Assembly (NCBI GenBank): GCA_047602405.1
Contig: JASGHJ010000001.1
Span: 160,001-224,000, forward strand
Length of the DNA stretch: 64,000 nt
DNA from: Anaeromyxobacteraceae bacterium
GTDB lineage: Bacteria; Myxococcota; Myxococcia; Myxococcales; Anaeromyxobacteraceae
Reading direction: 5' to 3'
Each line of letters begins with the position of its first letter. Positions within the stretch are counted from its first letter, which is position 1. Below, piece after piece: positions 43,053 to 64,000 of the stretch. The notes beneath the pieces were generated by a model that made no database searches, was not told the DNA's origin, and saw only the letters and a program-made list of their open reading frames with translations. The position numbers and the translations under genes are program-made.

Positions 43053-43460
43053 CTACCCGCAGCCGCAGCCTTCTCCGTGCACGTGGAGTGGCCCCGCGGG
43101 CTTCCCCTCGGAGCCGCCCGCACAGGTGCCCGCGTCGATCTGCGGCAGCATCCCGGCCTTGAGCGCGCTCACCACCTGCGCGACCGTCGAGCGGACCGCC
43201 CGGTAGACCGGGATGCCCTTCGCCTGGAAGCGGCCGATGGCGCCCTCGCCGATGTTGCCGACCACCGCGACGTCCACCCGGTCCTCGCCGAGGGCGTCGA
43301 GCGCGTGGGTCCGGCCTGGCGTGCCGGCGCTGGGGTTCGGGTGGGCCGCCATCGCGCCCGTGTCGGTGTCGATCACCAGGAACACCGGCGCCGACCCGAA
43401 GTGCGGGAAGACGACGCTCGACAGTCCATGGTCCTTCGCGACGGGGATGCAGGCCTTCAC
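43053..43460 (-). CDS. NifB/NifX-like (FeMo-co biosynthesis domain) protein with His/Cys tail
   Basis: VFPHFGSAPVFL, VVGNIGEGA..F..KGIPVY; tail HVHGEGCGCG. Confidence 0.8.
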   Translation of the reverse strand: MKACIPVAKDHGLSSVVFPHFGSAPVFLVIDTDTGAMAAHPNPSAGTPGRTHALDALGEDRVDVAVVGNIGEGAIGRFQAKGIPVYRAVRSTVAQVVSALKAGMLPQIDAGTCAGGSEGKPAGPLHVHGEGCGCG

Positions 43461-43672
43461 GGGTCACCTCCGGCGCCGGGCCGCCCGGAACCTCCGGGAG
43501 ATAAGGCCTCCCGGCGTGGATCCGGTCAAGCGCCCCGCGGCGCAAGACTTGCGCCTTTCCCGGGGATCTCCTGGGTTTGGCTGCCAGCGCGGCACCTTGT
43601 CGCACCCTCGAACCCGCCCTGGGGGCGGGGGCTCCCACCGGCCGAAGTCCCCTCCGCTCTCAGGAGTACACG

Positions 43673-45094
43673 TTGACCGCCCCCTCCCGCCGCTGGCTCG
43701 CCGTGGGCCTCGCGCTGACCGTCGTCGCCGGCATCGCCGCCGCCGTCGCCGCCTCGCGCCGCGAGACCCCGCACCCGCTCGCGCCCGCCTTCCAGAGGAA
43801 GACGCGCGCCCACTTCGACCACGCACCCGTGATGCCCGCGAGCTTCGACTCGCCCCAGGCCGTCACCCGGAGATGCCTCGAGTGCCACGAGGACGCGAAG
43901 GCCGTCATGAAGACCTCGCACTGGCAGTGGCTGGGCGAGGAGACCGCGATCCCGGGCCGCGAGGGCAAGCACCGCGTCGGCAAGGCGAACCTCATCAACA
44001 ACTTCTGCATCGCCTCGAGCGGCAACGAGAAGTCCTGCACGAAGTGCCACGTCGGCTACGGCTGGAAGGACGCCTCGTTCGACTTCTCGAAGGCCGAGAA
44101 CGTCGACTGCCTCGTCTGCCACGAGCGCACCGGCGGCTACGTGAAGGGACCCTGGGGCTTCCCCACGAAGGAGTCCGACCTCGCGGCCGCCGCGCGGTCG
44201 GTCGGCTTCCCGACCCGCGAGAACTGCATCACCTGCCACGCCTACGGCGGCGGCGGCCAGGCGGTGAAGCACGGCGACCTCGACTCGTCGCTCCTCCACC
44301 CGATCGCCGACGACGACGTGCACATCGGGAAGCTCGGCTTCCTGTGCGTCGACTGCCACGGCGGCAAGGACCACCAGCTGAAGGGCCGCGCCTTCTCGGT
44401 CTCGGTCGAGGACGCCCACGGCGTCGCCTGCCAGGACTGCCACGCGACGCCGAAGCACCCGGACCCGCGCATCGACGGGCACCTCGCGTCGGTCGCCTGC
44501 CAGACCTGCCACATCCCGAGCTACGCCCGGAAGATCCCGACGAAGGCCACCTGGGACTGGTCGAAGGCCGGCGACGCCTCCCGCCAGGACGACCCGCACA
44601 GCTACCTCAAGATCAAGGGCGAGTTCACCTACGAGCAGGACGTCGTGCCGGAGTACCGCTGGTTCAACCTGACCGTGGGCCGCTACCTCTCCGGCGACAA
44701 GGTCGACCCGGCCGGCGTCACCGAGCTCAACCCGCCCCAGGGCAGCATCCAGGACCGCACCGCGAAGATCTGGCCGTTCAAGGTCCACCGCGCGAAGCAG
44801 CCCTTCGACGCCGTGAACCTGTACCTCCTGAAGCCGGTCACCGGTGGTGAAGGCGGCTACTGGACCACCTTCGACTGGGACAGGAGCTTCAGGCTCGGCG
44901 AGAGGACCTCCGGCCTCGCGTACTCCGGCAAGTACGGCTTCGCGAGGACCGAGATGGTCTGGCCGATCACCCACATGGTCACGCCGAAGGAGAAGGCCCT
45001 CGGCTGCACCGACTGCCACGGGGAGAAGGGCCGCATGGACTGGAAGGCGCTCGGCTACGCGGGCGACCCGATGACGGTGGGAGGCCGGCCGTGA
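43673..45094 (+). CDS. Octaheme tetrathionate reductase (OTR)-family cytochrome c
   Basis: 8 CxxCH motifs; TSHWQW, GKANLINNFC, CTKCHVGYGW, KIWPFKVH; AGGAG RBS, N-terminal TM. Confidence 0.88.
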   Translation: MTAPSRRWLAVGLALTVVAGIAAAVAASRRETPHPLAPAFQRKTRAHFDHAPVMPASFDSPQAVTRRCLECHEDAKAVMKTSHWQWLGEETAIPGREGKHRVGKANLINNFCIASSGNEKSCTKCHVGYGWKDASFDFSKAENVDCLVCHERTGGYVKGPWGFPTKESDLAAAARSVGFPTRENCITCHAYGGGGQAVKHGDLDSSLLHPIADDDVHIGKLGFLCVDCHGGKDHQLKGRAFSVSVEDAHGVACQDCHATPKHPDPRIDGHLASVACQTCHIPSYARKIPTKATWDWSKAGDASRQDDPHSYLKIKGEFTYEQDVVPEYRWFNLTVGRYLSGDKVDPAGVTELNPPQGSIQDRTAKIWPFKVHRAKQPFDAVNLYLLKPVTGGEGGYWTTFDWDRSFRLGERTSGLAYSGKYGFARTEMVWPITHMVTPKEKALGCTDCHGEKGRMDWKALGYAGDPMTVGGRP

Positions 45095-47397
45095 AGCGCG
45101 CGTTCTCGATCCTGACCCTCGCCCTCACCCTCGCCCTCACCCTCGCGGCGCCGCTCGCCGTCCGGGCGCAGCAGGCGGTGAACCCCATCCACCCGCAGTT
45201 CGCGCCGCTCGGCGCGGACGGCAAGCCCGTGGCGAAGCCGGAGGCGGTCTCGATCGACGCCACCTGCGGCGCGTGCCACGACGCGAGGTACGTGCAGGCG
45301 CACGGCGTGCACGGCGAGGGCAAGGCCCGCGCCTCCTGCGTGCAGTGCCACGTCGACGGCGGCAAGCTCGACCTCGCCGCCCTCGGCGCTGACGGGCGGC
45401 TCGCCCGCGAGGCCCTCCGCATCGGCAAGCCGAAGGCCGCGAACTGCGCCGCCTGCCACGGCGTGATCGCGCCCGCCGGCGAGGCGGTTGCGCTGCCCGC
45501 GGACCTCGAAGCCGCCCCGGCGCCGGGCCGCACGTGGTCGTTGACCCTTGGCGAGGGCGCCATCGTCTCGCCGGGCCGGATGGAGGAGTCCTTCCTCAAC
45601 CTCGCAGGGAAGGACGCGCTCGCTTCCCCGTGGGACGTCCACGCGGCGAAGCTCGTCGACTGCGTCGCCTGCCACCACGCCGCGAACGATCCGGTCCGCG
45701 TCGACGCGAAGAAGGCGAAGCTCGCGTACCTCACCACCGACCCTCGCCGCACCACCACCGCGGAGTACCTGCTCCGGCCCGATCACCGGCTCGCCGAGCT
45801 CGACTGCCGCGCATGCCACGACGCGACGAAGGCCCACGCGTTCCTGCCCTACCGCGAGCGCCACGTGCAGGTGCTCGCTTGCCAGGCCTGCCACCTGCAG
45901 GCGCCGGCCGGCCCCGCCGCCGAGATGATCGACGCCACCGTCGCGGACGCGGCCGGGAAGCCCGCCGTCCGGTTCCGCAACGTCGAGCGCCGGCCCGGCG
46001 AGCCGCTCAACGCCGCGGCGATCACCCCGCTCCGCCCGCTCCTCGTCATGCGCACCGCGCCCGACGGGGCACGCCGGCTCACGCCGGTGAACCTCGTGTC
46101 CCGCTGGCGCTGGACCTCGAACGGCGAGGACGTCCCCTTCGAGAAGGTCGCCGCCGCGTTCCGCGAGCCGGCCGTGACGGCGGCGCTGGACGCCGACCGG
46201 GACGGCAAGCTCTCGGAGGCCGAGCTGCGGCTCGACGGCGACGCGAAGGTCGCCGCGGTCGCGGCGCGCCTGCGCGCGCTCGGGGTCGCCGATCCCCGCA
46301 TCGAGGGCGCTCTCGAGCCGCACGTGCTCGCCCACGGCGTCCCGTCCCGCGAGCGCGCGCTGCGTGACTGCGAGGCGTGCCACGCCGCCGAGTCGCGCGT
46401 CGCCACGACGTTCGCGCTCGCCGCCTACGTCCCCGGCGGCGTGCCCCCGAGGCCGCCCGAGGGCCGGCCCGGCGGCGAGAAGGTCGAGCTGTCGGGCACG
46501 GTGGAGCCCGGCCCGGCCGGCGGCCTCGTGTTCCGCCAGGGCGAGGGCTCGACGCCCTCCGGCCTCCACGTCCTCGGGCACTCCCGCGAGTCTTGGTCCA
46601 ACCTGCTCGGCTTCCTCGTGTTCGCGGCGGTCGCGCTCGGCGTGGCCGGCCACGGCCTCGCCCGGATCGTGATCCGCAAGGTCCGGGGCGCGCCCGCCCA
46701 CCCGCGCGCCGCACCGGCGGCGGCCCCTCCGACGCCGGGGCGCGAGTACGTGTTCGGCCGCTACGAGCGGCTGTGGCACTGGACGATGGCGTTCTCCGGC
46801 ATGGCCCTCATCCTCACCGGCCTCGTGATCCACTTCGCCGGGTCGGGGCCGCTCAGCCTCGCCGCCGCGGTGAACGTGCACAACGCGGGCGCCGTGGTGC
46901 TGATGGTGAACGCGTTCCTCGCGCTCTTCTACCACCTCGCCACCGCGGCCATCCGCAACTTCATCCCCGCGCCGCACGGCCTCGTGAGGCGGATGCTCGA
47001 GCACATGGAGTACCAGGCCCGCGGCATCTTCTTCGGCGGGCCGCACCCCGAGAACGCGCCGGGCGTGAAGCTCAACCCGCTGCAGCAGCTCACGTACCTC
47101 GCGCTCCTGAACGCGCTCTTCCCGGTGCAGATCGGGTCCGGCCTCCTCCTCTGGGCGGTCGGCCACTGGCCGTCGCTGGGCGAGGCGCTGGGCGGACTCT
47201 CCGTTCTCGCCCCGCTGCACAACCTCGGGTCCTGGCTGTTCCTCGCGTTCTTCGTGCTGCACGTCTACCTCGTCACGACCGGCCGCACGGTCGGCGAGCA
47301 CCTCCGCTCGATGGTCACGGGCTACCGCGACGCCGAGCCGGAGCCCGAGGGGCACGCCGCGGCTTCCCCCTCTCCTCTCGTCGACGCTGGAGCCTGA
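45091..47397 (+). CDS. Multiheme (7 CxxCH) cytochrome c fused to a cytochrome b membrane anchor
   Basis: Signal peptide, 7 CxxCH, then ERLWHW..VHN..NPLQQLTY..LHN..LHVY (FdnI/HyaC-type cytochrome b). Confidence 0.85.
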   Translation: MKRAFSILTLALTLALTLAAPLAVRAQQAVNPIHPQFAPLGADGKPVAKPEAVSIDATCGACHDARYVQAHGVHGEGKARASCVQCHVDGGKLDLAALGADGRLAREALRIGKPKAANCAACHGVIAPAGEAVALPADLEAAPAPGRTWSLTLGEGAIVSPGRMEESFLNLAGKDALASPWDVHAAKLVDCVACHHAANDPVRVDAKKAKLAYLTTDPRRTTTAEYLLRPDHRLAELDCRACHDATKAHAFLPYRERHVQVLACQACHLQAPAGPAAEMIDATVADAAGKPAVRFRNVERRPGEPLNAAAITPLRPLLVMRTAPDGARRLTPVNLVSRWRWTSNGEDVPFEKVAAAFREPAVTAALDADRDGKLSEAELRLDGDAKVAAVAARLRALGVADPRIEGALEPHVLAHGVPSRERALRDCEACHAAESRVATTFALAAYVPGGVPPRPPEGRPGGEKVELSGTVEPGPAGGLVFRQGEGSTPSGLHVLGHSRESWSNLLGFLVFAAVALGVAGHGLARIVIRKVRGAPAHPRAAPAAAPPTPGREYVFGRYERLWHWTMAFSGMALILTGLVIHFAGSGPLSLAAAVNVHNAGAVVLMVNAFLALFYHLATAAIRNFIPAPHGLVRRMLEHMEYQARGIFFGGPHPENAPGVKLNPLQQLTYLALLNALFPVQIGSGLLLWAVGHWPSLGEALGGLSVLAPLHNLGSWLFLAFFVLHVYLVTTGRTVGEHLRSMVTGYRDAEPEPEGHAAASPSPLVDAGA

Positions 47398-47399
47398 CC

Positions 47400-47957
47400 A
47401 TGGCCGACACCGACCCCACGACCGAAGCCCCGGCCCCCGCCCCGCGCGAGCCCAGGAAGTACATCGACCCCTACCTCGGCGGCGCGCTCCTCGGCGTCGT
47501 CCTCTTCCTCGCCTTCTACGTGACCGGCGGTGGCCTGGGCGCCTCCGCCGGCATCAACCACGTGCAGGTGGGCCTCCTCGACCTCGTGGCGCCCGGCCAC
47601 GTCGACCGCGTCGCCTACCTCGCCGAGATGGGCGGCGGCAGCCGCAGCTCCTGGGCGTACACCGGCGTCTACATGCTGGTGGGCACGCTCGTCGGCGGGC
47701 TCGTCTCCGGCCTCGTCGGCCGGCGCGTGAAGCTCGAGACCCGCGGCGGCCCGAACGTCTCCACCCGCACCCGCTGGCTCCTGGCGTTCGCGGGCGGAGT
47801 GGTCATGGCCTACGGCGCCCGCCTCGCGCGCGGCTGCACCTCGGGTCAGGCGCTCTCCGGCGGCGCGGTGCTCTCCGTCGGCAGCTGGGCCTTCATGTTC
47901 TCCATCTTCGCCGGGGGCTACGCGGTCGCGTTGCTCTTCCGCCGGCTCTGGAACTAG
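47400..47957 (+). CDS. YeeE/YedE sulfur-compound transporter family protein
   Basis: PYLGG, GLGAS, GARLARGCTSG. Confidence 0.87.
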   Translation: MADTDPTTEAPAPAPREPRKYIDPYLGGALLGVVLFLAFYVTGGGLGASAGINHVQVGLLDLVAPGHVDRVAYLAEMGGGSRSSWAYTGVYMLVGTLVGGLVSGLVGRRVKLETRGGPNVSTRTRWLLAFAGGVVMAYGARLARGCTSGQALSGGAVLSVGSWAFMFSIFAGGYAVALLFRRLWN

Positions 47958-47966: not shown

Positions 47967-49275
47967 ATGGCTCCCTTCGATCTCGGCGGCATCGCGGGCA
48001 CCTTCTCCTACGCCCTCGTCTTGGGTGCGATCGGCTTCGGCTTCGGCGCCGTGCTGGAGATGACCGGCTTCGGCGACACCCGCAAGCTCGCGGCGCAGTT
48101 CTACCTGACCGACCTCACCGTCCTGAAGACGATGTTCACCGCCATCGTCGTCGCGGCGGTGCTCGTGTTCGGCGCGACCTCGCTCGGCCTCCTCGACTTC
48201 TCCCGGGTGTGGGTGAACCCCACGTACCTGTGGCCCGGCATCGTGGGCGGGCTCATCATGGGCGTCGGCTTCGTCGTGGGTGGCTTCTGCCCGGGCACCT
48301 CGCTCGTCGCGGCCGCCACGCTCAAGGTGGACGGCATCCTGTTCGTCCTCGGCGCGCTGGTGGGCGTCGGGCTCTTCGGCGAGACGGTCGGCGCGTTCGA
48401 GCCGTTCTTCCTCTCCGGCGCCATGGGCCGCTTCACGCTGCCGGAGTGGCTCGGGCTCTCCACCGGCGCGGTCCTGCTGCTCGTGGTCGCGATGGCGCTC
48501 GTCATGTTCTGGGGCGCGGAGGTCCTCGAGCGGCGGGTGGGCGGCGCGCCGGCCCCCTCCGCGCGGCGCCGCACGCTCCGCCGCGCGGGCGTCTTCGCGC
48601 TCGCGGTGGTCGCGCTCCTCGTGGCCGTGCGCGGCCAGCCGACGGCCGACGATCGCTACGCCCGGATGCCCGCGCTCCAGAAGCTCGTCGCCGACGGCGC
48701 GATCCTCGTGCACCCCGCCGAGGTGGTCGCGCTCAAGAGGGACACCAGCGTGAAGGTGAACGTGCTCGACCTCCGGGACGAGGCCGCGTTCAACCTCTTC
48801 CACGTGGGCGGCGCGCGCCGGATCTCCGCCCGCCGCGCTCCAGGACCGCGCGGTGCTGCGCCCGCTCGTGGAGGCCGGCCCCACCGACGTGACGTTCCTC
48901 GTGGCGGCGACCGCGCCCGAGGCGCTCGCCGCGTGGCGCGCGCTCCGCACCCAGGGCGTCCTCAACCTCTTCGTCGTCGACGGCGGCGCCGACCGCTGGC
49001 TCGAGCTCTACCCGCCGCCGGCGTGCGTCGCCGAGCGGTCGCAGGGCGAGGCCGGGTGGCGGTTCCAGTACGCCACCGGCGAGAGCCTGCCGTCGGCCTG
49101 GCCGGAGCTCGCGAGCTCGCGGCTGTTCCGGTTCCCGTGCGAGACCACCGCCGACGCCTCGCACGCCGAAGGCGCCCCCGTGGGCGGCCACCACGGGTAC
49201 ACCTGGCCGAGCCACGCCTTCACGAAGCGCGTGAAGCTGCAGACGAAGTCGGTCGTGAAGGGGGGCTGCGGGTAG
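47967..49275 (+). CDS. YeeE/YedE-rhodanese fusion with C-terminal GGCG; +1 frameshift at ~48830
   Basis: VLKTMFTAI, GGFCPGTS, VLDLRDEAAFNLFHVGGA; removing one C joins ORF 48853..49275 (VDGGADRW...VVKGGCG). Confidence 0.8.
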
Positions 49276-50208: not shown

Positions 50209-52011
50209 ATGGACGCGTGCGCGGCCAGCGAGATCGTCGCGGAGACGTCGCCGGAGATCACTCCGGGTGACGCTGCGACGGGCATCACCCGCCGCGACCC
50301 GCTCGGCGACCGCTGGGACCTCCGCGCGCCGCGGTGGGATCTCCCGACCTTCACGCTGTTCGAGCTGCGCGAGCTCTGGCTGCGCGGCGACGGCGGCCTC
50401 GAGAAGTACGAAAGGGCTCTGGCCCAGGGCGCTCGCATGCTGCGGGCGCTGCAGGTCAGCCGCGCCGCGGTGCTCGCCAAGTTCACGGAGGGTGACCGGC
50501 TCGCCCGGCTGGGCTTCTCGAGCCTCGGCGACTTCACCGAGAACCTCCTCGGCACCCGCCGGCGCGCCGCGCAGGTGGAGGTCCAGCTCTCGAAGGCGCT
50601 GCGGGAGCGGCCGCTCCTCAGGGCCGCGGTGCACGCGGGCACGGTGAGCCCGTCGGCGGCGCTCGCGGTCCTGCCGGTCACGCCCGGAGACGACGAGGCG
50701 CGCTGGGTCGAGCGCGCGGCGGAGCTGCCGGTCCGCAGGCTCAAGCAGGAGGTGAAGCGGGCGCTGAAGGAGCGGAAGGCGCTGCCCGGGCCCGACGCCG
50801 CGGAGGAGAAGAGGGAAGAGGACGAGGCACCCTGGGTGCACCTCGACGTGCCGATCTCGGACCGGGCCAGCGAGCGGCTCCACAAGGCCCTCGCCCTCGC
50901 CGGCGAGCTCGTCGAGAGCCCGCACCGGTTCGTCCAGCTCGAGGCGCTCGGGCAGGAGTTCCTCTCCGAGCACCCGGGCGACGAGTGGGACGTGAAGGGC
51001 GCTGAGCTCGCCCTCGATCGAACGTTGCACCCCCTCGACGTCCCGACGAAGCGGAACGCCGCGGAGGCGAAGCTCGAGTCCGAGACCTCCTCCTGGGAGT
51101 TCCTCGACCCGGTCGTCCCGGTCCCGGCCGTCGAGCTCGACCCGCTCGACGCCGCGACGGACGACGACCTCTACGGGACCGCGCTCGGCCTCTCCCTGGA
51201 GATCAAGAGCTGGGAGGACCTCATCGGTTTCTGCTCGGCGGTCGTGAAGGGCGCCCGGCTCCACAAGGAGGCGGGGTTCGTCGACTTCCGTCACTACGCG
51301 ACCGAGCGGCTCGGCGTCCCGGCCCGCACCATCGAGACCCGCGCCGCGCTCGAGAAGCACCTCTGGGAGAAGCCCGAGCTCAAGGTCGCCAAGGAGATGG
51401 GCCTCAGCTACTCGAAGCTGCTCCTCCTGAAGGAGGTCCCGCAGGACCAGATCCTGGAATTCGCGAAGCGGGCCGAGACCCTGACGGTGGTCGAGCTCAA
51501 GGAGGCCGTCCAGGCGCGGACCGACGCGCATATGTCTGCGTCGAAGCGGTTCCGGGTGTGGGTCCCCCGCCGGGTCGCCCTGCTGCTCCACCAGGCGTTC
51601 CTGGCCTCGTTGGCGCTTCCGGTTCCGCCGGAGGAGGCGGAGACCCCCCAGTCCAGCACCCTGGACGGCGCCTTCCTCGGGAAGCTCGCGGACCACTTCA
51701 TCGCGGTCTGGGGCGGCGACGTGATGGAGCCGAAGACCGTCTCCCAGAAGCAGCGCGCGAAGTACCCGCGCTGCTGCTTCCCGGGCTGCAGCCGCCGCAG
51801 CGACCACGGCCACCACATCGAGTTCCGCAGCCACGGCGGCTCGGAGGACGCCTGGAACCGCATGCCGCTCTGCGCCTTCCACCACCACGTCGTCGTCCAC
51901 GGCGGCCACGCCACCATCACCGGCATCTTCCCCGACGCCGTCGAGTTCCGCGTGAACGGCGTCGTCTGGAAGGACGCGAATTTCGGGCGAACGCGGGCGG
52001 AGCGGGTCTGA
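50209..52011 (+). CDS. HNH endonuclease with long N-terminal DUF222-like region
   Basis: C-terminal CCFPGC..DHGHHIEFRSHGG....N..PLCAFHH...H. Confidence 0.82.
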   Translation: MDACAASEIVAETSPEITPGDAATGITRRDPLGDRWDLRAPRWDLPTFTLFELRELWLRGDGGLEKYERALAQGARMLRALQVSRAAVLAKFTEGDRLARLGFSSLGDFTENLLGTRRRAAQVEVQLSKALRERPLLRAAVHAGTVSPSAALAVLPVTPGDDEARWVERAAELPVRRLKQEVKRALKERKALPGPDAAEEKREEDEAPWVHLDVPISDRASERLHKALALAGELVESPHRFVQLEALGQEFLSEHPGDEWDVKGAELALDRTLHPLDVPTKRNAAEAKLESETSSWEFLDPVVPVPAVELDPLDAATDDDLYGTALGLSLEIKSWEDLIGFCSAVVKGARLHKEAGFVDFRHYATERLGVPARTIETRAALEKHLWEKPELKVAKEMGLSYSKLLLLKEVPQDQILEFAKRAETLTVVELKEAVQARTDAHMSASKRFRVWVPRRVALLLHQAFLASLALPVPPEEAETPQSSTLDGAFLGKLADHFIAVWGGDVMEPKTVSQKQRAKYPRCCFPGCSRRSDHGHHIEFRSHGGSEDAWNRMPLCAFHHHVVVHGGHATITGIFPDAVEFRVNGVVWKDANFGRTRAERV

Positions 52012-52012: not shown

Positions 52013-52360
52013 CTAGATCGTCACGACCTTCGCCGCGCCCATCGTCCGCTGCACGATCTCGCGCATGTTGCTCACCGTGCCCACCGCCAGCTTCTGCGTG
52101 AGGGCGAAGTGCTCGAGGCAGGTCACGCAGGCGAGGAGGTCCACCCCGGCCGCGTGCAGCGCCTGGAGCGCCTCGACGTGCGGCGAGCCCTCGGCGAGGA
52201 GCTTCACCGCCGCGTTGTAGAAGACGATGGCATCGGGCTTCTCGTCGACCGTGCCGAGCGTCCGGAAGAAGCTTCCCAGGATCTTCGCGCCGAGCGCGTC
52301 GTCGCCCCGGCCCATCGTCTCCGCGTGCACCGCGATCACCGTGCCGCTCTTGCCCGCCAT
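52013..52360 (-). CDS. DsrE-like protein (YedF-type sulfur/selenium relay domain)
   Basis: MGRGDDALGAKILGSFF, VFYNAAVKL, ACVTCLEH, VGTVSNMREI; GGAGG RBS. Confidence 0.82.
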   Translation of the reverse strand: MAGKSGTVIAVHAETMGRGDDALGAKILGSFFRTLGTVDEKPDAIVFYNAAVKLLAEGSPHVEALQALHAAGVDLLACVTCLEHFALTQKLAVGTVSNMREIVQRTMGAAKVVTI

Positions 52361-52433: not shown

Positions 52434-52464
52434 CGGGCCGGCCGGGGTGCGCTACGGTGAGGCG

Positions 52465-55537: not shown

Positions 55538-55750
55538 TCACGCGCCGCGCTGCGGCGCGTCCTTTCCGGGGTCGATGGTCCGCCACTGGTAGGTGGGCGC
55601 CTCGCCGTGGTGACCGATGGTGATCATCCGGATCATCTTCAGGTTGATCCACGCGAACCGCACGAGCTGCCACGGCAGGAACGTCCGCATGAGGACGGTC
55701 CAGCGCGTCGGCATGGGCGCGTGGAAGGTCTGCTCGCCGGGTCTGGGCAT
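55538..55750 (-). CDS. Small (70 aa) protein directly downstream of sqr
   Basis: GGGAG RBS 11 bp after the sqr stop; MPRPGEQTFHAPMPTRWTVLMRTFLPWQLVRFAWINLKMIRMI. Confidence 0.6.
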   Translation of the reverse strand: MPRPGEQTFHAPMPTRWTVLMRTFLPWQLVRFAWINLKMIRMITIGHHGEAPTYQWRTIDPGKDAPQRGA

Positions 55751-55761: not shown

Positions 55762-57216
55762 CTACTCCGGGATCAGCCACCAGCCCGCGCGGGCCTTGGC
55801 CTTCCAGAGGAACAGGTGGTGGAGGATCTTCTTGATCCAGTGGCCGGCGAGGCCGATCTCGCCGAACGTGAAGCGGAAGTCCCGGCCGTAGTCCGGGTAC
55901 TTGTCGTAGTCCGGCACGATCGGGAACATGGTCATCGAGGCCGCGGAGCCGCCGAGCCAGCTTGCGCCGGCCGAGGCCACGCAGGACGCGCCCATCTCGG
56001 CCATCGACGCGGTGCGCGTCGGCCGGGGCGTGCCCATCACGATCATGCCGGTGATGGACTCGGCGACCGCGCGGGCCATGACGGCCGACGGCATGCCGGT
56101 GCGCGGCGGGGCGGGGGCGATCAGCGTCCCCTTCGCCGACTTCCGCGGGCGGGAGATCGCGTGCGGCGGCGCGAAGGCGATGCCGATCGCGAAGACGTTG
56201 GGGTACCTGGGGGTCTGGTAGGTCTTCGGCCAGTCGGCCGCCTTCCACTGCTCGAACGGCTTCGCGGTGTAGTCGGCGTCGACCCGCATGAACCCGCTCG
56301 GCGCGAAGACCTCGGAGGTGATCTCGGCCCCGTCCTTCGCGAAGGCCTTGATGGGCTGGCCGGCGAACGGGGGCAGCAGCATCGCGAAGTCGAACGGGAG
56401 GTCGTGCTCGACCCCGTCGAGCGTCTCGTAGTGCACCACGTCCGGCTCGACCCGGTGCACGTGGGCGCCGGTGATCCACTCGATGCCGCGCTCGGCGTAC
56501 AGCGACTCGGCGAAGGTCTTCGAGTGCACGCGGTAGCCGCCGCGCTCGAGGTGCACGCCGCCCACGCCGAAATCGCCGAGGTCGGCCTCGTTCGTGAGGA
56601 AGACGATGCGGGCGCGGTCGCGCACGCCCGCCTGCCGGAGCGTGAACTCGACGTTGAAGACGTACTCGAACGCCGCGCCCTCGCAGGTGCACAGGCCGTG
56701 GCCGACGCCGACCACCAGCGTCAGCCGCTCGCCCTGGCGCATCCGGGCGATGGCCTGCGCGAGCGCCTTCGCCGCGTGAGCGGCGTGGTCGTTCGTGCAG
56801 ACCGAGACGGTGTGGGCCTCGGGGCCGAGGCCGGGCGTCGCCGCGAAGTTGAGGCGGGGACCGGTCGCGTTGACGAGGTAGTCGTAGGGCACGCGGGAGC
56901 GCTCGCCCGCCGCGGCGCCGGTGGACTCCACCACGACGTGCGGCCCGGGCTCGGCGGCGCCGCCCTCGGCCCACAGCTCGACCGCCTTCGCCTGGACGAA
57001 CTCGATGCCCTCCCGCCGGTAGACCGGGGCGAGCTCGAAGACGACGTCCTCCGGCTTCATCATCCCGACGCCCACCCAGATGTTGGACGGGATCCAGTTG
57101 CAGGTCGGCTTCGGGGAGACCACGGTGACCGTGTGCTCGCGCGGGAGCTCCTTCCGGAGGAGCAGCGCCGCCGTGTGCCCCGCGATGCCGGCGCCGAGGA
57201 CCACCACCTTCGCCAT
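55762..57216 (-). CDS. sqr: Sulfide:quinone oxidoreductase
   Basis: VVVLGAGIAG, WIPSNIWVG, SVCT, GHGLCTCEGAAFE, APPRTGMPS, ASCVASAG, GLAGHWIK. Confidence 0.87.
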   Translation of the reverse strand: MAKVVVLGAGIAGHTAALLLRKELPREHTVTVVSPKPTCNWIPSNIWVGVGMMKPEDVVFELAPVYRREGIEFVQAKAVELWAEGGAAEPGPHVVVESTGAAAGERSRVPYDYLVNATGPRLNFAATPGLGPEAHTVSVCTNDHAAHAAKALAQAIARMRQGERLTLVVGVGHGLCTCEGAAFEYVFNVEFTLRQAGVRDRARIVFLTNEADLGDFGVGGVHLERGGYRVHSKTFAESLYAERGIEWITGAHVHRVEPDVVHYETLDGVEHDLPFDFAMLLPPFAGQPIKAFAKDGAEITSEVFAPSGFMRVDADYTAKPFEQWKAADWPKTYQTPRYPNVFAIGIAFAPPHAISRPRKSAKGTLIAPAPPRTGMPSAVMARAVAESITGMIVMGTPRPTRTASMAEMGASCVASAGASWLGGSAASMTMFPIVPDYDKYPDYGRDFRFTFGEIGLAGHWIKKILHHLFLWKAKARAGWWLIPE

Positions 57217-57310: not shown

Positions 57311-57457
57311 ATGGACGGCGCCGCCTACGTGCACCGCGACGACACCGTCGAGCGGATGATCCCGCTGCCGGTGGTCGGGCACTGGATGGAGCGCGGCTGG
57401 GGCCGCTACTTCACGCTCTCGAAGAAGCGGCTCGTGCCGCGGCTGCCGGGGACGTAG
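57311..57457 (+). pseudogene. 48-codon ORF resembling the C-terminus of an SQR-like flavoprotein (remnant)
   Basis: MDGAAYVHRDDTVERMIPLPVVGHWMERGWGRYFTLSKKRLVPRLPGT; GHW motif and amphipathic helix; coding-like GC3. Confidence 0.45.
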
Positions 57458-57625: not shown

Positions 57626-58398
57626 GATCTCCTGACAAGAACGCCCTCGCGCGCGCCCACTACGCGGAGCTCGCCCGCATCGGGAAGGTCCTCGGCAGCC
57701 CCGTCCGGCTGCTCCTGCTGGATCTCCTGCGCCAGGGGCCGCGCTCGGTCGAGACGCTCGCCGAGGCCGCGGGCCTGCCGGTCGCGAACGCCTCGCAGCA
57801 CCTCCAGCACATGCGCCGCGCCCGCGTGATCGCGGCCGAGCAGCGCGGCCGGTTCACCGTGTACCGCCTCGCGGCCGAGAACGTCTCGGCGGTCTTCGCC
57901 GCGCTGCGCCTGCTCGCGGAGGACCTCCTCCCCGAGATGGACCGGCTCCGCGGCGAGCTCTCCGTGCTCGGCCCGGAGGAGCGCGAGGAGCTCCTCGAGG
58001 CGATCCGTCGCGACGCCGTGACGCTCGTCGACGTCCGCCCGGTCGAGGAGTTCCGCGCCGGGCACCTCCCCGGCGCCCACTCGATGCCGCTCGCCGAGCT
58101 GCGCGAGCGCCTCGCCGAGCTGCCGCGCGAGCGCGAGATCGTCGCGTACTGCCGCGGCCCTTACTGCACGCTCGCGGGCACCGCCGTCCGGATCCTCGAG
58201 CAGGCCGGCTTCAGGGCCCGCCACCTCGACCTCGGCGTACCCGACCTCAGGGCCCGCCGCTTCCGCATCGCCTCCGGCGACGCCGCGCAACCGCGCCGCG
58301 CCGCCCCGCCCACCCGCCGCGCCGTTCGCACCTCGAAGCCCAGCACCTCGAAGCTCAGCACCTCGAGGCCCCGCACCCGCACCCGGAGCTCCCGATGA
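57624..58398 (+). CDS. ArsR/SmtB regulator fused to a rhodanese domain; one extra base right after the GTG start
   Basis: ARIGKVLGSPVRLLLLDLLRQGPRSVETLA..NASQHL (open from 57628); VDVRPVEEFRAGHLPGA, YCRGPYC. Confidence 0.85.
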
Positions 58399-59333
58399 GA
58401 CACCTCGTTGCCGTCGCCGCCCTCGCGTTCGCCACCCCCGCCCTCTCCGACGACGTCTTCGTGTCCGCGGACGAGGCGAAGGCCCTCGCCGGGAAGCCCG
58501 ACGTCCGGTTCGTCTACGCCGACGCCGTGAAGAAGTTCGAGGCCGGGCACGTCCCCGGCTCGGTCGTCGCCTTCGCGCACGACCTCCACTTCCTCGACGA
58601 CGTGAAGGCCTGCAAGGGCCTGCCGATGTGCGAGCCCGCCGCCGCGAAGCTCATCGGCGGCACCCTCGGCATCGACGGGAAGACCCAGGTCGTCGTGTAC
58701 GACGACGGCCCGGGCGCGAACGCGTCCGGCACCTGGTTCTTCCTCGAGCTCTACGGCGTGCCGAACGTGAAGATCCTCGACGGCGGCCTCGCCGCCTGGA
58801 AGGCGAAGGGCGGCGCGGTCGAGGCCGGCGCCCCGGCGAAGGTCGCCGCGAAGGCGTTCACGCCCGCCGTGCAGTGGAACATGATCGCGACGGTCGACGA
58901 GGTGAAGAAGGCGACCGCCGACGGCGCCCACTACGTCATCCTCGACTCCCGCCACAACCTCGACGAGTACACCGGCAAGCAGCTCCTCGGCGCGCTCTCC
59001 GCGCCCGGCAAGGAGCAGACCGTGAAGCGCGGCGGCGCGATCCCCGGCGCGATCTTCTCGCCCTGGTCGAAGTACGCCGGCAACAAGGACGGCGCGGCCG
59101 ACAAGCCGACGCTGAAGGACCCCGCCGAGCTCGCGAAGCAGCTCGAGAAGCTCAAGAAGAACGGCTACGACCCGTCGAAGACCGTCATCACCTACTGCCA
59201 CGTCGGCCTGGGCCGCGGCTCGTTCCAGTACCTCGCGCTGCGCGCCGCCGGCCACAAGAACACGAAGGTCTACGTCGGCTCCTGGGACGAGTGGGGCAAC
59301 GACGCCTCGCTCCCGCTCGCCGCGCAGCCGTAG
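58395..59333 (+). CDS. Periplasmic two-domain rhodanese/sulfurtransferase
   Basis: Signal peptide, GHVPGS, KILDGGLAAWK, TYCHVGLGRG active loop, VYVGSWDEW. Confidence 0.88.
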   Translation: MRHLVAVAALAFATPALSDDVFVSADEAKALAGKPDVRFVYADAVKKFEAGHVPGSVVAFAHDLHFLDDVKACKGLPMCEPAAAKLIGGTLGIDGKTQVVVYDDGPGANASGTWFFLELYGVPNVKILDGGLAAWKAKGGAVEAGAPAKVAAKAFTPAVQWNMIATVDEVKKATADGAHYVILDSRHNLDEYTGKQLLGALSAPGKEQTVKRGGAIPGAIFSPWSKYAGNKDGAADKPTLKDPAELAKQLEKLKKNGYDPSKTVITYCHVGLGRGSFQYLALRAAGHKNTKVYVGSWDEWGNDASLPLAAQP

Positions 59334-59342: not shown

Positions 59343-60473
59343 ATGGTCGGCTCCTTCCTCGCGGGCGCCCTCACCGGCGCGGCGTTCGGGTGGGTCCTCT
59401 ACAAGGTGGGCGCCACGCGCTACTCGCGCGTGATGGGCATGCTCACGCTCAAGGACACGAAGGTGATGAAGTTCGCCTTCACCACCATCGGCGTCGCCTC
59501 GCTCGCCTATGGCCTCGCGGCCGCGGCGGGCGTGGCGGAGGCCTGGGGGCTCGTCCCCCGGGTGATGCCGTTCCTCGGCTACGGCCACCTCCTCGGCGGC
59601 GCGCTCTTCGGCCTCGGCATGGGCGTCTCCGGCCTCTGCCCCGGCACCTGCGTCGCGAAGCTCGGCGGGCGCGGCGGCGGGAAGAAGTACGCCACGCCGG
59701 CCGCGGTCCTGGGGCTCGTCGCCGGCGTGCTCGTCTACCAGCTCGTGAAGGATCGGCTGATGTCCGCCGGGGTCATCGCCGAGAACCAGCTGCCGCTCAC
59801 GCTGCACGGCGTGCTCGGCCTGCCCTACGCGGCGGTCGCGCTCGTCCTCGCCGCGGTCATGATCGCCGTCGCGATCGCCGTCGACCGGCTGACGCCCGAG
59901 GCGGTGTACGCGCCGGCCCGCGAGAAGAGGACGCTCGTCGACTGGCTGCGCGGCGAGTGGAGCTGGACCGCGGGCGGCACCGCCGCGGGCCTCCTCGTCG
60001 TGGCCTCGACCGCCCAGGGCGGCTACCTGGGGTTCTCGGGCGCGATCCTCGCCGCGGTCGGGAGCGGCACGCACCTCCTCGGCCTCGACCTCCCCATCGT
60101 CCCCCGCGTCGACGCCGACATCGTCTGGCGGGCCGCGCTCATCCTCGGCGTGTTCCCGGGCGCCTGGCTCGCCCACGCGGTCGCGATCCCGTCGAAGGCG
60201 GCGGTCGAGGCCCCCGCCGTGAAGGTCCTCGACTGGCGGGCGATCGGCACGAGCTTCGGCGCGGCGGCCACGATGTGCCTCGGCGCGCTCGTCGGCGGCG
60301 GCTGCACCACCGGCGCGTTCCTCTCCGCGTGGCCGACCCTCTCGGTCGGCAGCTTCGCCATGGCGGGCACGTTCTTCGCCGTCTCGATGGCGACCTCGAG
60401 CGCCCGGGCGTTCCTCCTCCACACCTACGACATCGGCGCGGCGCAGGCGTTCGGCGATCGCGCCTACGACTAG
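59343..60473 (+). CDS. YeeE/YedE family membrane protein (full-length, two halves)
   Basis: VMKFAF, SGLCPGT, GGGCTTG. Confidence 0.85.
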   Translation: MVGSFLAGALTGAAFGWVLYKVGATRYSRVMGMLTLKDTKVMKFAFTTIGVASLAYGLAAAAGVAEAWGLVPRVMPFLGYGHLLGGALFGLGMGVSGLCPGTCVAKLGGRGGGKKYATPAAVLGLVAGVLVYQLVKDRLMSAGVIAENQLPLTLHGVLGLPYAAVALVLAAVMIAVAIAVDRLTPEAVYAPAREKRTLVDWLRGEWSWTAGGTAAGLLVVASTAQGGYLGFSGAILAAVGSGTHLLGLDLPIVPRVDADIVWRAALILGVFPGAWLAHAVAIPSKAAVEAPAVKVLDWRAIGTSFGAAATMCLGALVGGGCTTGAFLSAWPTLSVGSFAMAGTFFAVSMATSSARAFLLHTYDIGAAQAFGDRAYD

Positions 60474-60482: not shown

Positions 60483-60617
60483 ATGAAGATGCAGATCAGG
60501 ATGCTCCTCGCGGCGGCCGTGCTGGTGCTCGCCGCGGGCTATCTGGGCCTCAGGAGCGGCAACGCGGCGCTGGAGCGGAAGGTCGCCGCCACCGCGAGGG
60601 GTGAGGTGACGCCGTGA
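60483..60617 (+). CDS. Small single-TM protein (44 aa)
   Basis: AGGAG RBS; MKMQIRMLLAAAVLVLAAGYLGLRSGNAALERKVAATARGEVTP; GTGA overlap with next gene. Confidence 0.55.
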   Translation: MKMQIRMLLAAAVLVLAAGYLGLRSGNAALERKVAATARGEVTP

Positions 60618-61076
60618 AGCTCGAACCGCTCGTCTGGGTGGGGGCGCTCGCGCTCCTCTCCGGCATGGTCGTGAGGGAGGGCCAGCGCCGCACCGCGCTC
60701 GAGGCCCAGGTGCCGGTCGAGGCGAAGGACCTCTACCGCACGATGGCGAGGTCGAAGGCGGCGCTCCAGAATCGTCGACGTCCGCCCCGACCTCTCCGCC
60801 GGCTACGAGGACGCCCGGGTGCCGGGCGCGCTGCCGATGCCCGGCTGCGACCTCGCCGCCGCGCCCGAGAAGGCGCGCGCCCGCATCGTCCCGTCGGTGC
60901 CCACCGTGATCGTCACGGCCACCGGCAGCGCGGCGGAGGCCGCGAGGTGCGCGGGCTTCTTCACGTCGGCGCGGTTGCTCGCCGGCGGCCAGGAGGCCTG
61001 GACCGACGCGAACCTGCCCGAGGACTCGGGCGAGTACTCCCCGCCGTCCGCGAAGGCGGGCGGGGGCTGCCTCTAG
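60614..61076 (+). CDS. Membrane-anchored rhodanese-like protein ending GGGCL; +1 frameshift at ~60770
   Basis: N-terminal TM; removing one A gives LQIVDVRPD..GYEDARVPGA..LAGGQEAW..AKAGGGCL. Confidence 0.72.
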
Positions 61077-61142
61077 GACGTTCGTCGCTCGCAGCAGGGC
61101 AGCGCTGGCAGCAGCGCTTCGACACCAGGGAGAGGGTTGGCC

Positions 61143-64000
61143 ATGTCCGTCAGCCGAAGGGACGTGCTGAAGGGGATCGCGGCGCTGCCGGTGGCCGGAG
61201 CCGCCGGCGAGGTCCTCGCCGAGGCAGCGCCTCGACAGCCGCAGCTGCCCGAGCCGGTCCGGGTGGAAGGCCCGGGGCCCGGCCCGACCGCGAAGGCCAC
61301 CGAGGACCTGTACCGCGCCGAGTTCGCCGGTACCTACGGCGACGGCGAGCAGCACGGGTACGCCTTCCACTGCGTGAACTGCCAGGGCAACTGCGCCTGG
61401 GAGGTCTGGACCGACGCGTCGGGCAAGGTGACGCGCGAGAACCAGTCGGCCTCCTACCCGCAGCTCGCGCCCGACCTGCCGGACGCGAACCCGCGCGGCT
61501 GCAACAAGGGCGTGCAGCACTCGCAGATCATGTACGAGAAGGACCGGCTCCTCTACCCGATGCGGCGCGCGGGCAAGCGCGGCGAGGGCAAGTGGACCCG
61601 GATCTCCTGGGACGAGGCGGTCACCGAGGTCGCCACCCACCTCTACGAGACCATGCTCTCGAAGGGGCCGGGCGGGAACTACGTCCACATGGGCTCGGGC
61701 ATGCTCTCCGAGGCGCGCGCCGCCTCCGTGAAGCGGCTCGGCTCGCTCCTCGGCGCGGTCCGCCCGTACATCGCGAGCTACGTCGGCGACAACTTCCCCG
61801 GCCCGGGCCTCGTCTACGGCGAGGGCAACCTCGGCGTCACCTACGACTTCTTCTACAAGACCGAGGTGGCGGTGTTCTGGGGCTGCAACCCCAACACCTC
61901 TCGCATCCCGGACGCCCACTACCTGTGGGAGGGGAAGTACAACGGCGCGAAGGTCATCGTCATCACGCCCGAGTTCAACTCGACCGCGGTGCACGCCGAC
62001 CTGTGGGTGCCGGTGAAGCCGGGCTACGACGGCCACCTGGCGCTCTCGATCATGAACCGGATCGTGGCGCGGAAGCTCTACGACCCGGCGTTCCTGAAGA
62101 CCTTCACGGATCTCCCGTTCCTGGTCCGCGCCGACACGAAGGAGCTCGTCCGGCTCCACGACGTCGACCTCACGGACAGGCGCTTCGACGCCGGCTCGGC
62201 GAAGCGGTTCGCCGCCGACGAGGCGAGGCACCACGAGGTCTTCCTCGCCTGGGACCTGAAGCAGAACCGGGCGACCGCGCTGCCAGGCTGCGAGGGCTCG
62301 ACGGTCGACACGCTCCGGCTCGAGGACATCGACTGGAAGCTCGACCCGGCGCTCGCGGGCAGCTTCAAGCTGAAGCTCAAGGAGCACGGCGGCGCCCCGA
62401 AGGAGGTCACGGTCGTCCCGGCCATGGCGCTCCTCGAGCAGGAGCTCCGGAAGTTCGCGCCGGAGGCGACCCGGAAGCTCACCGGCGTGCACCCGTCGAT
62501 CGTCGAGACCCTCGCGACCGACCTCATGAAGTCGAAGACCGCGGTCCTCACCCTCGGCTTCGCCATCGGCAAGCACTTCAACGGCCTCCTCTCCCAGCGC
62601 GCCATCGCCTCCCTCGGCGCGCTCATGGGCAAGCTCGGGCCCCGCGGCGGGTTCAACACCGAGAACGAGTGGTCGATCACCGGCCTCGGCGGGCTCTCCG
62701 GCTTCGACGGCCGCTACAACCACCGCTTCGCCTCGGGCTTCGTCTCCGAGTTCATGATGGGCGACGGCTTCGCGTCACCGGAGGCCGCCTTCCAGGACGA
62801 GGACTTCAGGCGCGCCACCGGCAAGGGGGAGAAGGAGTACGTCGCCGAGGTCGCCGCCACCATCGCGAAGAGCGAGGGCGACGCCGGCTACAGGCAGGGC
62901 AAGCCCTGGTGGAAGGAGACCGACACCTTCCTCCTCTTCGCCGACGCCCGCTTCCGCCGGAACAAGGGGCGCTACCGCGACGCGTTCCTGGAGAAGGCGA
63001 AGTTCATCGCGTACGGCGACTTCCGGATGAGCGACTTCGCGAGCTACGCGGACGTGCTCCTCCCCTGCTCCAGCCACTACGAGGTCTGGGACCTCCGCAC
63101 GAACCCCGGCTACCACCGCTACGCGAACGTCGCCGTCCCGCCCGCGAACCTCAAGAAGCTCGGCGAGGCGAAGTCGGAGTGGGAGATCTCGACGCTCATC
63201 GCCGAGAAGCTCCAGGCGATCGCGACCGCGCGGTACGCGGCGACGAAGGACGAGAGGTTCATCAAGATCCCCGACCGCACGCACACCCAGGGCGGCGTCC
63301 GCGACCTCGACCGCGTGGTCGAGGAGTTCACCCTCGGCGGGAAGCTCCGGAGCGACCGCGACGCGGTCGAGTTCGCGCTCGAGCACGTCGACCAGTTCAA
63401 GCCGAACGACCCGAAGACGATGGTGGCCCGCGGCGGGTACCTGCAGCTCAACGAGAAGGCGGGCAAGTCCTCGCCGCTCTACCCGGACCGGCCCTACTCG
63501 ACCTTCGAGAACAACCTGTACCTCACGCAGAGGTTCGAGACCGCGAGCGGCCGCCTCACCTTCTACGTCGACCACCCGCTCTGGATCGCCCAGGGCGCGA
63601 ACGTGCCGACCGCGAAGGAGCCGCTCGCCTCGCGGAAGTTCCCGTTCCTGCTCATGACGCCGCACGCGCGCTGGTCGATCCACTCGACCTACAAGACCTC
63701 GCCGACGCTGCTCCGCCTGCAGCGCGGCCGGCCGGCGGTCATGCTGAACCCGGCCATCGCCGAGAAGCGGGGCATCCACGACGGCGAGCTCGTGCGGGTC
63801 TTCAACGACCTCGGCGAGGCCACCATGGTCGCGAAGGTCGCCGCGAGCTGCCCGCGGGACGCGCTCGTCCTCGAGCACGGGTGGGAGCCGTTCTGCTACC
63901 CGGGCAAGAAGGGCCACAACGCGCTCGTCGGCTCGATGCTCAACCAGCTCGAGGTCTCCGACGGCTGGGGCCACCTCAGGTTCGGCACCGCCTGGGACGG
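61143..64000 (+). CDS. Tat-exported type II DMSO-reductase-family molybdoenzyme catalytic subunit (3' end beyond window; absent from ORF track)
   Basis: SRRDVLK Tat motif; FHCVNCQGNC...NPRGCNKG (His/Cys FS0); SYVGDNFPG (Asp ligand position); WGCNPNTSRIPDAH; TPHARWSIHSTY. Confidence 0.9.
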   Translation, partial: MSVSRRDVLKGIAALPVAGAAGEVLAEAAPRQPQLPEPVRVEGPGPGPTAKATEDLYRAEFAGTYGDGEQHGYAFHCVNCQGNCAWEVWTDASGKVTRENQSASYPQLAPDLPDANPRGCNKGVQHSQIMYEKDRLLYPMRRAGKRGEGKWTRISWDEAVTEVATHLYETMLSKGPGGNYVHMGSGMLSEARAASVKRLGSLLGAVRPYIASYVGDNFPGPGLVYGEGNLGVTYDFFYKTEVAVFWGCNPNTSRIPDAHYLWEGKYNGAKVIVITPEFNSTAVHADLWVPVKPGYDGHLALSIMNRIVARKLYDPAFLKTFTDLPFLVRADTKELVRLHDVDLTDRRFDAGSAKRFAADEARHHEVFLAWDLKQNRATALPGCEGSTVDTLRLEDIDWKLDPALAGSFKLKLKEHGGAPKEVTVVPAMALLEQELRKFAPEATRKLTGVHPSIVETLATDLMKSKTAVLTLGFAIGKHFNGLLSQRAIASLGALMGKLGPRGGFNTENEWSITGLGGLSGFDGRYNHRFASGFVSEFMMGDGFASPEAAFQDEDFRRATGKGEKEYVAEVAATIAKSEGDAGYRQGKPWWKETDTFLLFADARFRRNKGRYRDAFLEKAKFIAYGDFRMSDFASYADVLLPCSSHYEVWDLRTNPGYHRYANVAVPPANLKKLGEAKSEWEISTLIAEKLQAIATARYAATKDERFIKIPDRTHTQGGVRDLDRVVEEFTLGGKLRSDRDAVEFALEHVDQFKPNDPKTMVARGGYLQLNEKAGKSSPLYPDRPYSTFENNLYLTQRFETASGRLTFYVDHPLWIAQGANVPTAKEPLASRKFPFLLMTPHARWSIHSTYKTSPTLLRLQRGRPAVMLNPAIAEKRGIHDGELVRVFNDLGEATMVAKVAASCPRDALVLEHGWEPFCYPGKKGHNALVGSMLNQLEVSDGWGHLRFGTAWD

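Follow-up and report, generated by a model that had tools for sequence, protein, structure and literature searches.

A conserved operon pairing a type II molybdoenzyme with two cysteine-tail proteins lies in a composite sulfur-gene region of a Myxococcota genome

Within a 64,000-nucleotide window of a Myxococcota genome (contig positions 160,001-224,000; genome of 6.16 Mb in two contigs, rated 98.4% complete), we examined the sulfur-related genes at window positions 43,053-64,000 and found at their core a conserved operon that pairs a type II molybdoenzyme of the dimethyl sulfoxide (DMSO) reductase family with two proteins ending in invariant cysteine tails. This core operon starts at 57,628, runs rightward and extends about 8.5 kb past the window end, and we followed it downstream to about 72,500. 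We propose that it oxidises carrier-bound sulfane sulfur to sulfite in the periplasm, in a manner that resembles Sox but involves no homologous proteins, a reading drawn from sequence to which we give a probability of roughly 0.55 and in which both substrate and direction are predicted. The 21-kb stretch as a whole is a patchwork and not one unit. An earlier sequence-only reading had described it as a single sulfur pathway in a Myxococcota-like organism; the host is indeed an Anaeromyxobacteraceae-like member of the Myxococcota with a closest relative that is 95% identical, and all the genes then named were recovered at 43,053-64,000 by gene calls and by Pfam, NCBIfam and PDB matches, but the cysteine tails, the protein ending in FKGCL and the downstream oxidase, which we rate as key features, had been overlooked.

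Genes were checked by gene calling, by Pfam and NCBIfam (TIGR/NF) family scans and by comparison with the PDB. The core was surveyed in 51 loci with relatives of its alpha subunit, taken from the best 80 of 328 confirmed stretches, and presence was counted in 77 genomes of the family, 355 of the phylum (Myxococcota) and 50 core-carrying genomes; the phylum and carrier sets overlap, and kin genomes are non-independent in these counts. Numbering continues past the window end, where the coordinate in locus L001 is the given number minus 60,000. The core operon and its downstream genes are as follows.

57,628-58,398, plus strand: ArsR regulator-rhodanese fusion with an active cysteine (YCRGPYC), first gene of the core operon (PF01022/PF00581, NF033788).
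58,395-59,333, plus strand: exported two-domain rhodanese (Pfam), with active Cys268 in the C-terminal domain kept in 50/50 sequences.
59,343-60,473, plus strand: full-length YeeE sulfur channel (PF04143; Cys99 and Cys321 in 50/50).
60,483-60,617, plus strand: 44-residue single-helix membrane microprotein, present in 49/49 loci of the same gene order.
60,614-61,076, plus strand: protein with a rhodanese fold, an N-terminal hydrophobic anchor and no active-site cysteine, ending in GGGCL; frameshift at 60,770.
61,143-64,000 (gene end 64,064), plus strand: type II DMSO-reductase-family alpha subunit with a twin-arginine translocation (Tat) signal (TIGR03479, 729 bits against a cut-off of 985).
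64,067-65,134, beyond the window: beta subunit (TIGR03478, 518 bits against a cut-off of 481).
65,131-66,192, beyond the window: gamma subunit with a fused heme c (PF09459; TIGR03477, 118/170 bits).
66,197-66,625, beyond the window: FKGCL protein, 142 residues, with a signal-like N-terminus and no Pfam match.
Up to 72,500, beyond the window: Mrp, cytochrome c, SCO and coxBACD (caa3-type oxidase).

The core order from the ArsR-rhodanese fusion through the exported rhodanese, YeeE, microprotein, GGGCL protein, alpha, beta and gamma to the FKGCL protein recurred across the survey, in which the rhodanese, YeeE and GGGCL genes were each present in 50 of the 51 loci, the sole miss being a locus that starts inside alpha at a contig end, and gamma, the FKGCL gene and Mrp were found in 47, 46 and 31 loci, respectively. 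According to their record titles these loci belong to Myxococcota, Bdellovibrionota, Pseudomonadota and Aquificota, with alpha identities of 56-95%. The core marker was detected in 38/355 phylum genomes, as a single copy in each, and in 17/77 family genomes; none of the four genomes of the genus that consist of a single contig carries it. Three small genomes (L049, L033 and L035; 2.6-3.1 Mb, two titled Bdellovibrionota and one Pseudomonadota) combine the core with a SorA-type gene, and in L049 genes resembling those of molybdenum cofactor biosynthesis, recognised by eye, lie upstream of the core.

Both cysteine tails were invariant, GGCL in 50/50 and KGCL in 46/46 sequences. A model of the intact copy of the GGGCL protein in the closest relative (predicted local distance difference test score, pLDDT, 88) revealed a rhodanese fold with 69 PDB fold matches at E 0.001, while a sequence search of the PDB had given no match. 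The tail is disordered, and all 50 rows lack a cysteine in the active-site loop, the register being set from the model and by eye and the profile alignment covering only the N-terminal part. The four rhodanese-domain proteins of the sequence-only reading are thus all present, but only two keep the active-site cysteine and the other two carry a cysteine tail instead. The FKGCL protein matched no Pfam or NCBIfam family, Foldseek returned no PDB match at E 0.001, its atlas clusters are hypothetical proteins, and it shows a weak likeness to OB-like folds.

Three frameshifts, at about 48,835, 57,633 and 60,770, are confined to the present assembly, the relatives being intact. Four public sequencing runs from four studies contain one base fewer than the assembly at 57,633 and at 60,770, a difference that restores the start of the ArsR-rhodanese gene, and in the closest relative the GGGCL gene, coxA and a YeeE fusion upstream of the core (435 residues) are single open reading frames. 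We therefore rejected true pseudogenes as an explanation for ArsR, the GGGCL gene, the YeeE fusion and coxA. In the same four runs related pieces covered both this core and the upstream cytochrome module, and no single contig spanned the stretch.

The alpha subunit bears the type II signatures, with H76, C80, C84 and C120 as FS0 ligands and Asp216 as the molybdenum (Mo) ligand, and its score below the TIGR03479 cut-off indicates a divergent branch; the ebdA and narG models gave 305/2000 and 203/1084 bits. In a FastTree phylogeny of 55 rows, which did not include SerA, DdhA, PcrA or EbdA, alpha formed its own branch (support 100) outside the ClrA, periplasmic NarG (pNarG) and NarG branches, the nearest characterised row being ClrA at 34% identity, with pNarG at 30%. 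Ten sister or outside lineages (P0172-P0193) contained no characterised enzyme except an annotated chlorate reductase. Beta scored above its cut-off, and the Met/Lys heme b ligands and His/Met heme c ligands of gamma were kept in 46/47 sequences. Such heme ligation is generally of high potential, and a chain of this kind would be unable to reduce thiosulfate or polysulfide but can serve selenate or chlorate reduction; the wiring of gamma thus fits oxidation, not reduction, of thiosulfate or polysulfide. No TorD-type chaperone gene lies in the core operon, and the only PF02613 match of the genome sits in the nar operon. In both this genome and the closest relative, residue 232 of alpha is a valine; the position following the Asp ligand, usually Met, is Asn. 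I210, A211 and W510 of alpha align with F164, Y165 and W461 of 4ydd, which we take to be PcrA and its substrate gate; I210 and A211 do not vary across 45 rows, and the residues at two of the gate positions are smaller than in 4ydd.

We predicted the complex of alpha (residues 72-965) and the FKGCL protein (residues 37-142), each with a 45-row alignment and without the Mo cofactor, a test that covers one of the two cysteine arms. The docking score was 0.81, whereas none of three controls exceeded 0.00; of solved pairs 116/157, and of mismatched pairs 2/215, reach the mark that it passed, counts that are only a rough guide for our own alignments. The runs had at least 84% of contacts in common, with a partner pLDDT of at least 82, and since no PDB entry matches the FKGCL protein at E 0.001, the pair is unlikely to have passed because the predictor had memorised a like complex. 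In the model the body of the partner (58-69 and 87-99) touches alpha 381-397 and 771-796, and the interface also names alpha 210-211, 229 and 509-513 and partner residues 135-139 and 141-142. At 33 interface positions, four members of the clade match the window at 23-28, four sister lineages at 10-16, and ClrA, pNarG and three other type II rows at 1-6, a comparison to be read with the caveat that funnel surfaces vary between families regardless. As a separate observation, the sister lineages P0172, P0176, P0179 and P0174 retain part of the predicted docking surface, and the FS0 ligands are missing from the aligned P0176 sequence. The model supports binding of the FKGCL protein to alpha, and we infer that its tail would be the part touching the substrate gate.

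On these grounds the proposed route may be laid out as follows. The exported rhodanese would take sulfane sulfur from thiosulfate or polysulfide, and YeeE would carry such sulfur through the membrane, either outward from cytoplasmic sources, for example a sulfide:quinone oxidoreductase (SQR), or inward to the ArsR-rhodanese as a sensor; in Hyphomicrobium, YeeE-type SoxT proteins serve in import and signalling (PMC12423496). The sulfur would then travel as a persulfide, first on the GGGCL arm anchored in the membrane and next on Cys141 of the FKGCL protein. This protein is predicted to bind alpha, the tail lying at the substrate funnel, where Mo would add water-derived oxygen in two cycles and sulfite would be released. 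Electrons would pass from the iron-sulfur centres to heme b, the fused heme c, cytochrome c and the caa3 oxidase, for all of which genes are present. Sulfite could finally be turned into sulfate by SorAB or, in other lineages, by a second Mo enzyme of the B-C-A type described below, and the host would be a heterotroph that uses sulfane sulfur as an extra electron source or removes it. The sequence-only reading had likewise placed a periplasmic, rhodanese-linked molybdoenzyme step between sulfane sulfur and sulfite, and in this it agrees with our preferred reading; its inclusion of an octaheme tetrathionate reductase (OTR) and SQR in the same unit finds no support.

Genes for a sulfite sink bear on the direction of the reaction. 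SorA is Tat-exported, retains the Mo-binding cysteine, has as its top PDB match the sulfite:cytochrome c oxidoreductase subunit A (2blf) and lies next to a CxxCH protein, SorB; both are below their NCBIfam equivalog cut-offs (425/600 and 78/93 bits). A SorA-type gene was present in 10/17 core-positive and 4/60 core-negative genomes of the family, and in 16/38 and 30/317 of the phylum; it is adjacent to the core in 13/51 loci, at varying positions. Thus, SorAB tracks the core operon. In nine loci a second Mo enzyme lies near the core, in eight of them directly after it with a beta-type gene first, and the two loci seen in full have the gene order B-C-A, a Tat motif and a TorD gene; at L046:15,949-22,588 and L031:16,068-22,650 the enzyme is about 1,100 residues long and is accompanied by TorD and a polyferredoxin. 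This B-C-A enzyme fell below every NCBIfam cut-off, its best PDB match being 2vpw over 250 residues, and TtrA was rejected as its identity at 63/1750 bits. Across the 50 carrier genomes, SorA-type genes were found in 25-26 and the B-C-A enzyme in 17, both together in 1 (8.5-8.8 expected) and neither in 8-9; the SorA cut-off (E 1e-48) was chosen at a score gap after the scores were known, the weaker matches being mostly short open reading frames, and the counts were made with and without one adjacent SorA-like gene (G126). In the phylum set the close B-C-A form occurred in 13 genomes, all among the 38 carriers and none with SorA, and nine distant B-C-A homologs were all in non-carriers. This alternation points to two interchangeable sulfite sinks and hence to sulfite as the product.

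The remaining features of the stretch, upstream of the core operon, are listed below; module A denotes the OTR unit.

43,053-43,460, minus strand: NifX/Nitro_FeMo-Co-like protein flanking the OTR module (PF02579, E 2e-15).
43,673-45,094, plus strand: octaheme tetrathionate-reductase-family cytochrome (OTR, module A; TIGR04315, 539 bits against a cut-off of 375; 8 CxxCH).
45,091-47,397, plus strand: heptaheme cytochrome c-cytochrome b fusion (module A; PF01292; 7 CxxCH).
47,400-47,957, plus strand: split YeeE, first gene (module A; PF04143, profile 174-309).
47,967-49,275, plus strand: split YeeE, second gene, with a rhodanese-like domain and the end VKGGCG (module A; PF04143, profile 8-188), frameshift at about 48,835.
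50,209-52,011, plus strand: 600-residue multi-copy passenger with a C-terminal HNH-like motif seen by eye, not sulfur-related (copies at least 94% identical; no Pfam match).
52,013-52,360, minus strand: DsrE-like protein, C-terminal half of the YedF model (PF02635, TIGR03527; in 1/51 loci).
52,423-53,748, plus strand: ChrA-family oxyanion transporter (TIGR00937; in 1/51 loci).
53,756-54,115, minus strand: SorB-type monoheme cytochrome c (NF052246, E 3e-22).
54,127-55,365, minus strand: SorA-type sulfite dehydrogenase, Tat-exported (2blf, E 1e-93).
55,538-55,750, minus strand: small protein after SQR (gene call; kept in the closest relative).
55,762-57,216, minus strand: SQR, no signal peptide seen (top PDB match 3hyv, E 2e-43).
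57,311-57,457, plus strand: 3' remnant of a second SQR-like flavoprotein gene that the closest relative keeps whole (L002, about 5,060-6,320).
Within the stretch, a further passenger: a 184-residue gene with no family assigned.

The genes named as three YeeE proteins in the sequence-only reading do include three PF04143 genes, but two of these are the halves of one split YeeE; the rhodanese call on the second half was a motif read by eye, its C-terminal piece having no Pfam match. In module A the heptaheme-cytochrome b fusion is likely the quinol link. OTR scored above its cut-off in 38/77 family genomes, 11 of which also carry the core, so that the two show no significant association (Fisher p 0.18). 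In these 11 genomes OTR and core lie less than 30 kb apart in two, about 50-56 kb apart in three (with unrelated genes between them in the one examined), 611 kb apart in one and on different contigs in five; a count of 0/51 for OTR within core loci was left unused because OTR, about 16 kb away from alpha, falls outside the 10-kb flanks. Nine of 11 OTR loci inspected have the OTR-heptaheme/cytochrome b-split YeeE unit, the other two being distant OTRs, and the KGGCG tail is kept in 8/9 module copies, one copy being broken. SQR has a flavin adenine dinucleotide (FAD) fold, with C178 and C412 aligned to cysteines of 3hyv, and the type found in the window occurs in 3/77 family genomes. The gene order of the stretch is the same in the closest relative; several transcription directions occur inside it, and its guanine-cytosine content is not distinct from that of the remaining window, so that an island marked by a compositional shift was rejected. 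We conclude that the OTR module and SQR are independent units brought beside the core in this lineage, and the idea of 21 kb of co-conserved genes is not sustained.

Several further observations were made in and around these units. The NifX-like gene, retained only in the closest relative among the 11 OTR loci, encodes a further cysteine-rich tail (HVHGEGCGCG). A third cysteine-arm module in the same genome (L072:3,988-9,890; G000:C2, about 1,090,000-1,096,000) comprises ArsR, PhsA/Psr-like A and B, a split YeeE whose second half ends in GGGCSG, and an NrfD-like subunit. The 600-residue HNH-like gene is not at the corresponding place in the closest relative; besides one split copy, the genome contains three further full copies of 94-96% identity and several of 45-66%, and the gene is likely an active mobile or repeat element. 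Directly after the oxidase operon lie two WYL-type genes (L001:12,518-14,517), the first assigned by Pfam and the second by eye, and at window positions 39,875-42,255 convergent LigD polymerase-like and ATP-dependent ligase-like genes were recognised by eye from their translations.

A six-frame search of the whole genome gave no match to SoxY, SoxA or SoxB, with a positive control in Thermus, and none to DsrA or DsrC, in keeping with the lack of sox and dsr core genes that the sequence-only reading had noted for the 21-kb stretch. No match to aprA was found in the genome, but the control was equally blank. An indirect check, made with no dedicated model, did not detect sHdr, the CCG-domain matches looking by eye like lactate/glycolate-type dehydrogenases, and a motif scan together with seven metallo-beta-lactamase matches, four of them inspected, yielded none that is clearly a persulfide dioxygenase. 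The genome also encodes NarG, two Nap-like enzymes, an NrfA-like protein, formate dehydrogenases, a cbb3 oxidase and the PhsA/Psr-like enzyme.

A number of observations weigh against oxidation of carrier-bound sulfane sulfur to sulfite by the core. In the docking model, built without the Mo cofactor, all 25 listed residue pairs are body contacts and none joins Cys141 to the gate. The nearest characterised tree relative is a reductase, ClrA, with similar heme wiring, and a cysteine near the funnel that is kept in 46/48 relatives is Val232 here (window 61,836-61,838). SQR lies near the core in only 2/51 loci; SoxB occurs in 2/50 carrier genomes, which says little without a phylum baseline; and the 14/51 loci with an oxidase adjacent to the core fall within one subtree, so that the oxidase link counts as one event. 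The alternation of SorA and the B-C-A enzyme also rests on few events, four to five independent pairs agreeing and none disagreeing (sign test p 0.06), and 9/38 phylum carriers, like the 8-9 of the carrier set, have neither enzyme, several of these genomes being near-complete. Moreover, full-length B-C-A homologs of 52-58% identity occur in Nitrosophilus, Sulfurimonas and Thiovulum, genera in which gene sets that are similar and may be the same have been published as polysulfide reductases (PMC10045233, PMC11539149). In Sulfurovum indicum, psrA1B1C1 is highly expressed and does not change significantly under sulfur reduction (PMC10045233).

The same cysteine-arm relay might serve another chemistry, in which a carrier-bound species, for example tetrathionate or cysteine-S-thiosulfonate, is cleaved or reduced, or in which the core contributes the oxidative side of a disproportionation that it shares with a Psr-like B-C-A partner. 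The likeness of that partner to gene sets annotated as polysulfide reductases and the similar arms beside OTR and beside the PhsA/Psr-like enzyme in this genome favour such a scheme, but the wiring through cytochrome c instead of a quinol anchor and the association with SorAB and an oxidase do not, and we consider it unlikely. The arm could also deliver sulfur as a reagent to the Mo centre, either for cofactor sulfuration or, in the way of metallopterin-dependent ergothioneine synthase, to build a C-S bond into an organic substrate. For a Mo centre of the DMSO-reductase family, persulfide delivery by a relay has been proposed (PMC9516567), the predicted docking fits equally well, and the core operon has no D-type chaperone gene; this leaves the SorAB association unexplained, no conserved organic-substrate gene was found among the tested window genes, and we judge the idea improbable.

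Given that ClrA is the nearest characterised branch, the core might instead be a selenate- or chlorate-type reductase or take part in selenium handling, with the rhodaneses and YeeE treating selenium or tellurium products. A weak match of the rhodanese to ExtH and the nearby YedF-like DsrE and ChrA genes would suit this, but the ExtH score is 58/200 bits, DsrE and ChrA are rarely found at core loci (see above), and neither a predicted protein partner at the funnel nor the SorA link would be expected, which makes it very improbable. The whole 21 kb, including OTR and SQR, as one co-regulated sulfide-to-sulfate pathway is the view of the sequence-only reading. The identical gene order in the closest relative is in keeping with it, and the units could cooperate in this strain, but OTR is not associated with the core, SQR of this type is rare in the family, transcription directions are mixed and a multi-copy gene lies inside, so that we hold this version, too, to be improbable.

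How does the proposed oxidation of carrier-bound sulfane sulfur compare with known systems? The Sox system is periplasmic and cytochrome c-linked, and the tail motif of SoxY is GGCGG. SoxYZ holds sulfur on a cysteine swinging arm (PMC11237559), and SoxCD oxidises the SoxYZ-bound sulfane (PMC4584964). Cysteine-arm-held sulfur, periplasmic location and cytochrome c linkage would be shared with the core, and the GGGCL and VKGGCG tails resemble that of SoxY, but SoxY, SoxA and SoxB were not found here, the carriers have rhodanese and OB-like folds and are not SoxY homologs, the core enzyme is of the DMSO-reductase family (bis-pterin, Asp ligand) and not of the sulfite-oxidase family, and it would release sulfite, not sulfate. 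With ClrABC/SerABC, PcrAB, DdhABC, EbdABC and periplasmic NarG the core shares a Tat-exported alpha, a His-3Cys FS0, the Asp ligand, an iron-sulfur beta and a Met/Lys heme b gamma; it differs by its own branch, the gamma-heme c fusion, the absence of a D chaperone gene, the fixed sulfur-transfer genes and the smaller residues at two gate positions. DsrC has a penultimate cysteine on a tail that enters DsrAB, and the FKGCL tail likewise has a penultimate cysteine, but the genome has no DsrC or DsrA, and the FKGCL protein is periplasmic and without a Pfam match. The SQR-rhodanese-persulfide dioxygenase route of heterotrophs has a sulfite intermediate (PMC13047784), and sdo and sqr are reported in other Myxococcota orders (PMC11821767); SQR, rhodaneses and, in the proposed scheme, sulfite are common to both, whereas the Mo enzyme would conserve electrons instead of using O2 directly. 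Finally, the OTR resembles the Shewanella type in its TIGR04315 score and eight hemes and differs in forming a fixed unit with the heptaheme-cytochrome b fusion and a split YeeE with a GGCG tail, its tetrathionate/nitrite activity being putative. The single parts have known folds, and we could not match the whole system to any described kind; no description of the core operon was found in searches of the open-licence literature, although supplementary gene tables may carry its genes under other names.

In its widest form our proposal is that carrier-bound sulfur is oxidised by a fourth route next to Sox, rDsr and sHdr, namely a sulfane dehydrogenase of the DMSO-reductase family that has a cysteine-arm carrier of its own and is present in about one-tenth of Myxococcota genomes as well as in Bdellovibrionota and Aquificota, and that the Campylobacterota-type B-C-A 'polysulfide reductase' is a periplasmic sulfite:quinone oxidoreductase replacing SorAB; we put the two together at somewhat less than an even chance. 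The markers by which genomes are classed as sulfur oxidisers are sox, dsr and shdr, and if the proposal is true, 38/355 Myxococcota genomes as well as members of the Bdellovibrionota and Aquificota would carry energy-linked sulfur oxidation missed by those markers, while annotation now labels the core enzyme a dimethyl sulfide dehydrogenase or a generic reductase. It would also give type II molybdoenzymes a new reaction, on a protein-tethered substrate, and would represent a convergent version of the SoxY/DsrC arm principle, and the alternation with SorAB would make the widespread B-C-A enzyme, with likely relatives that now carry the annotation polysulfide reductase, a candidate for a new function.

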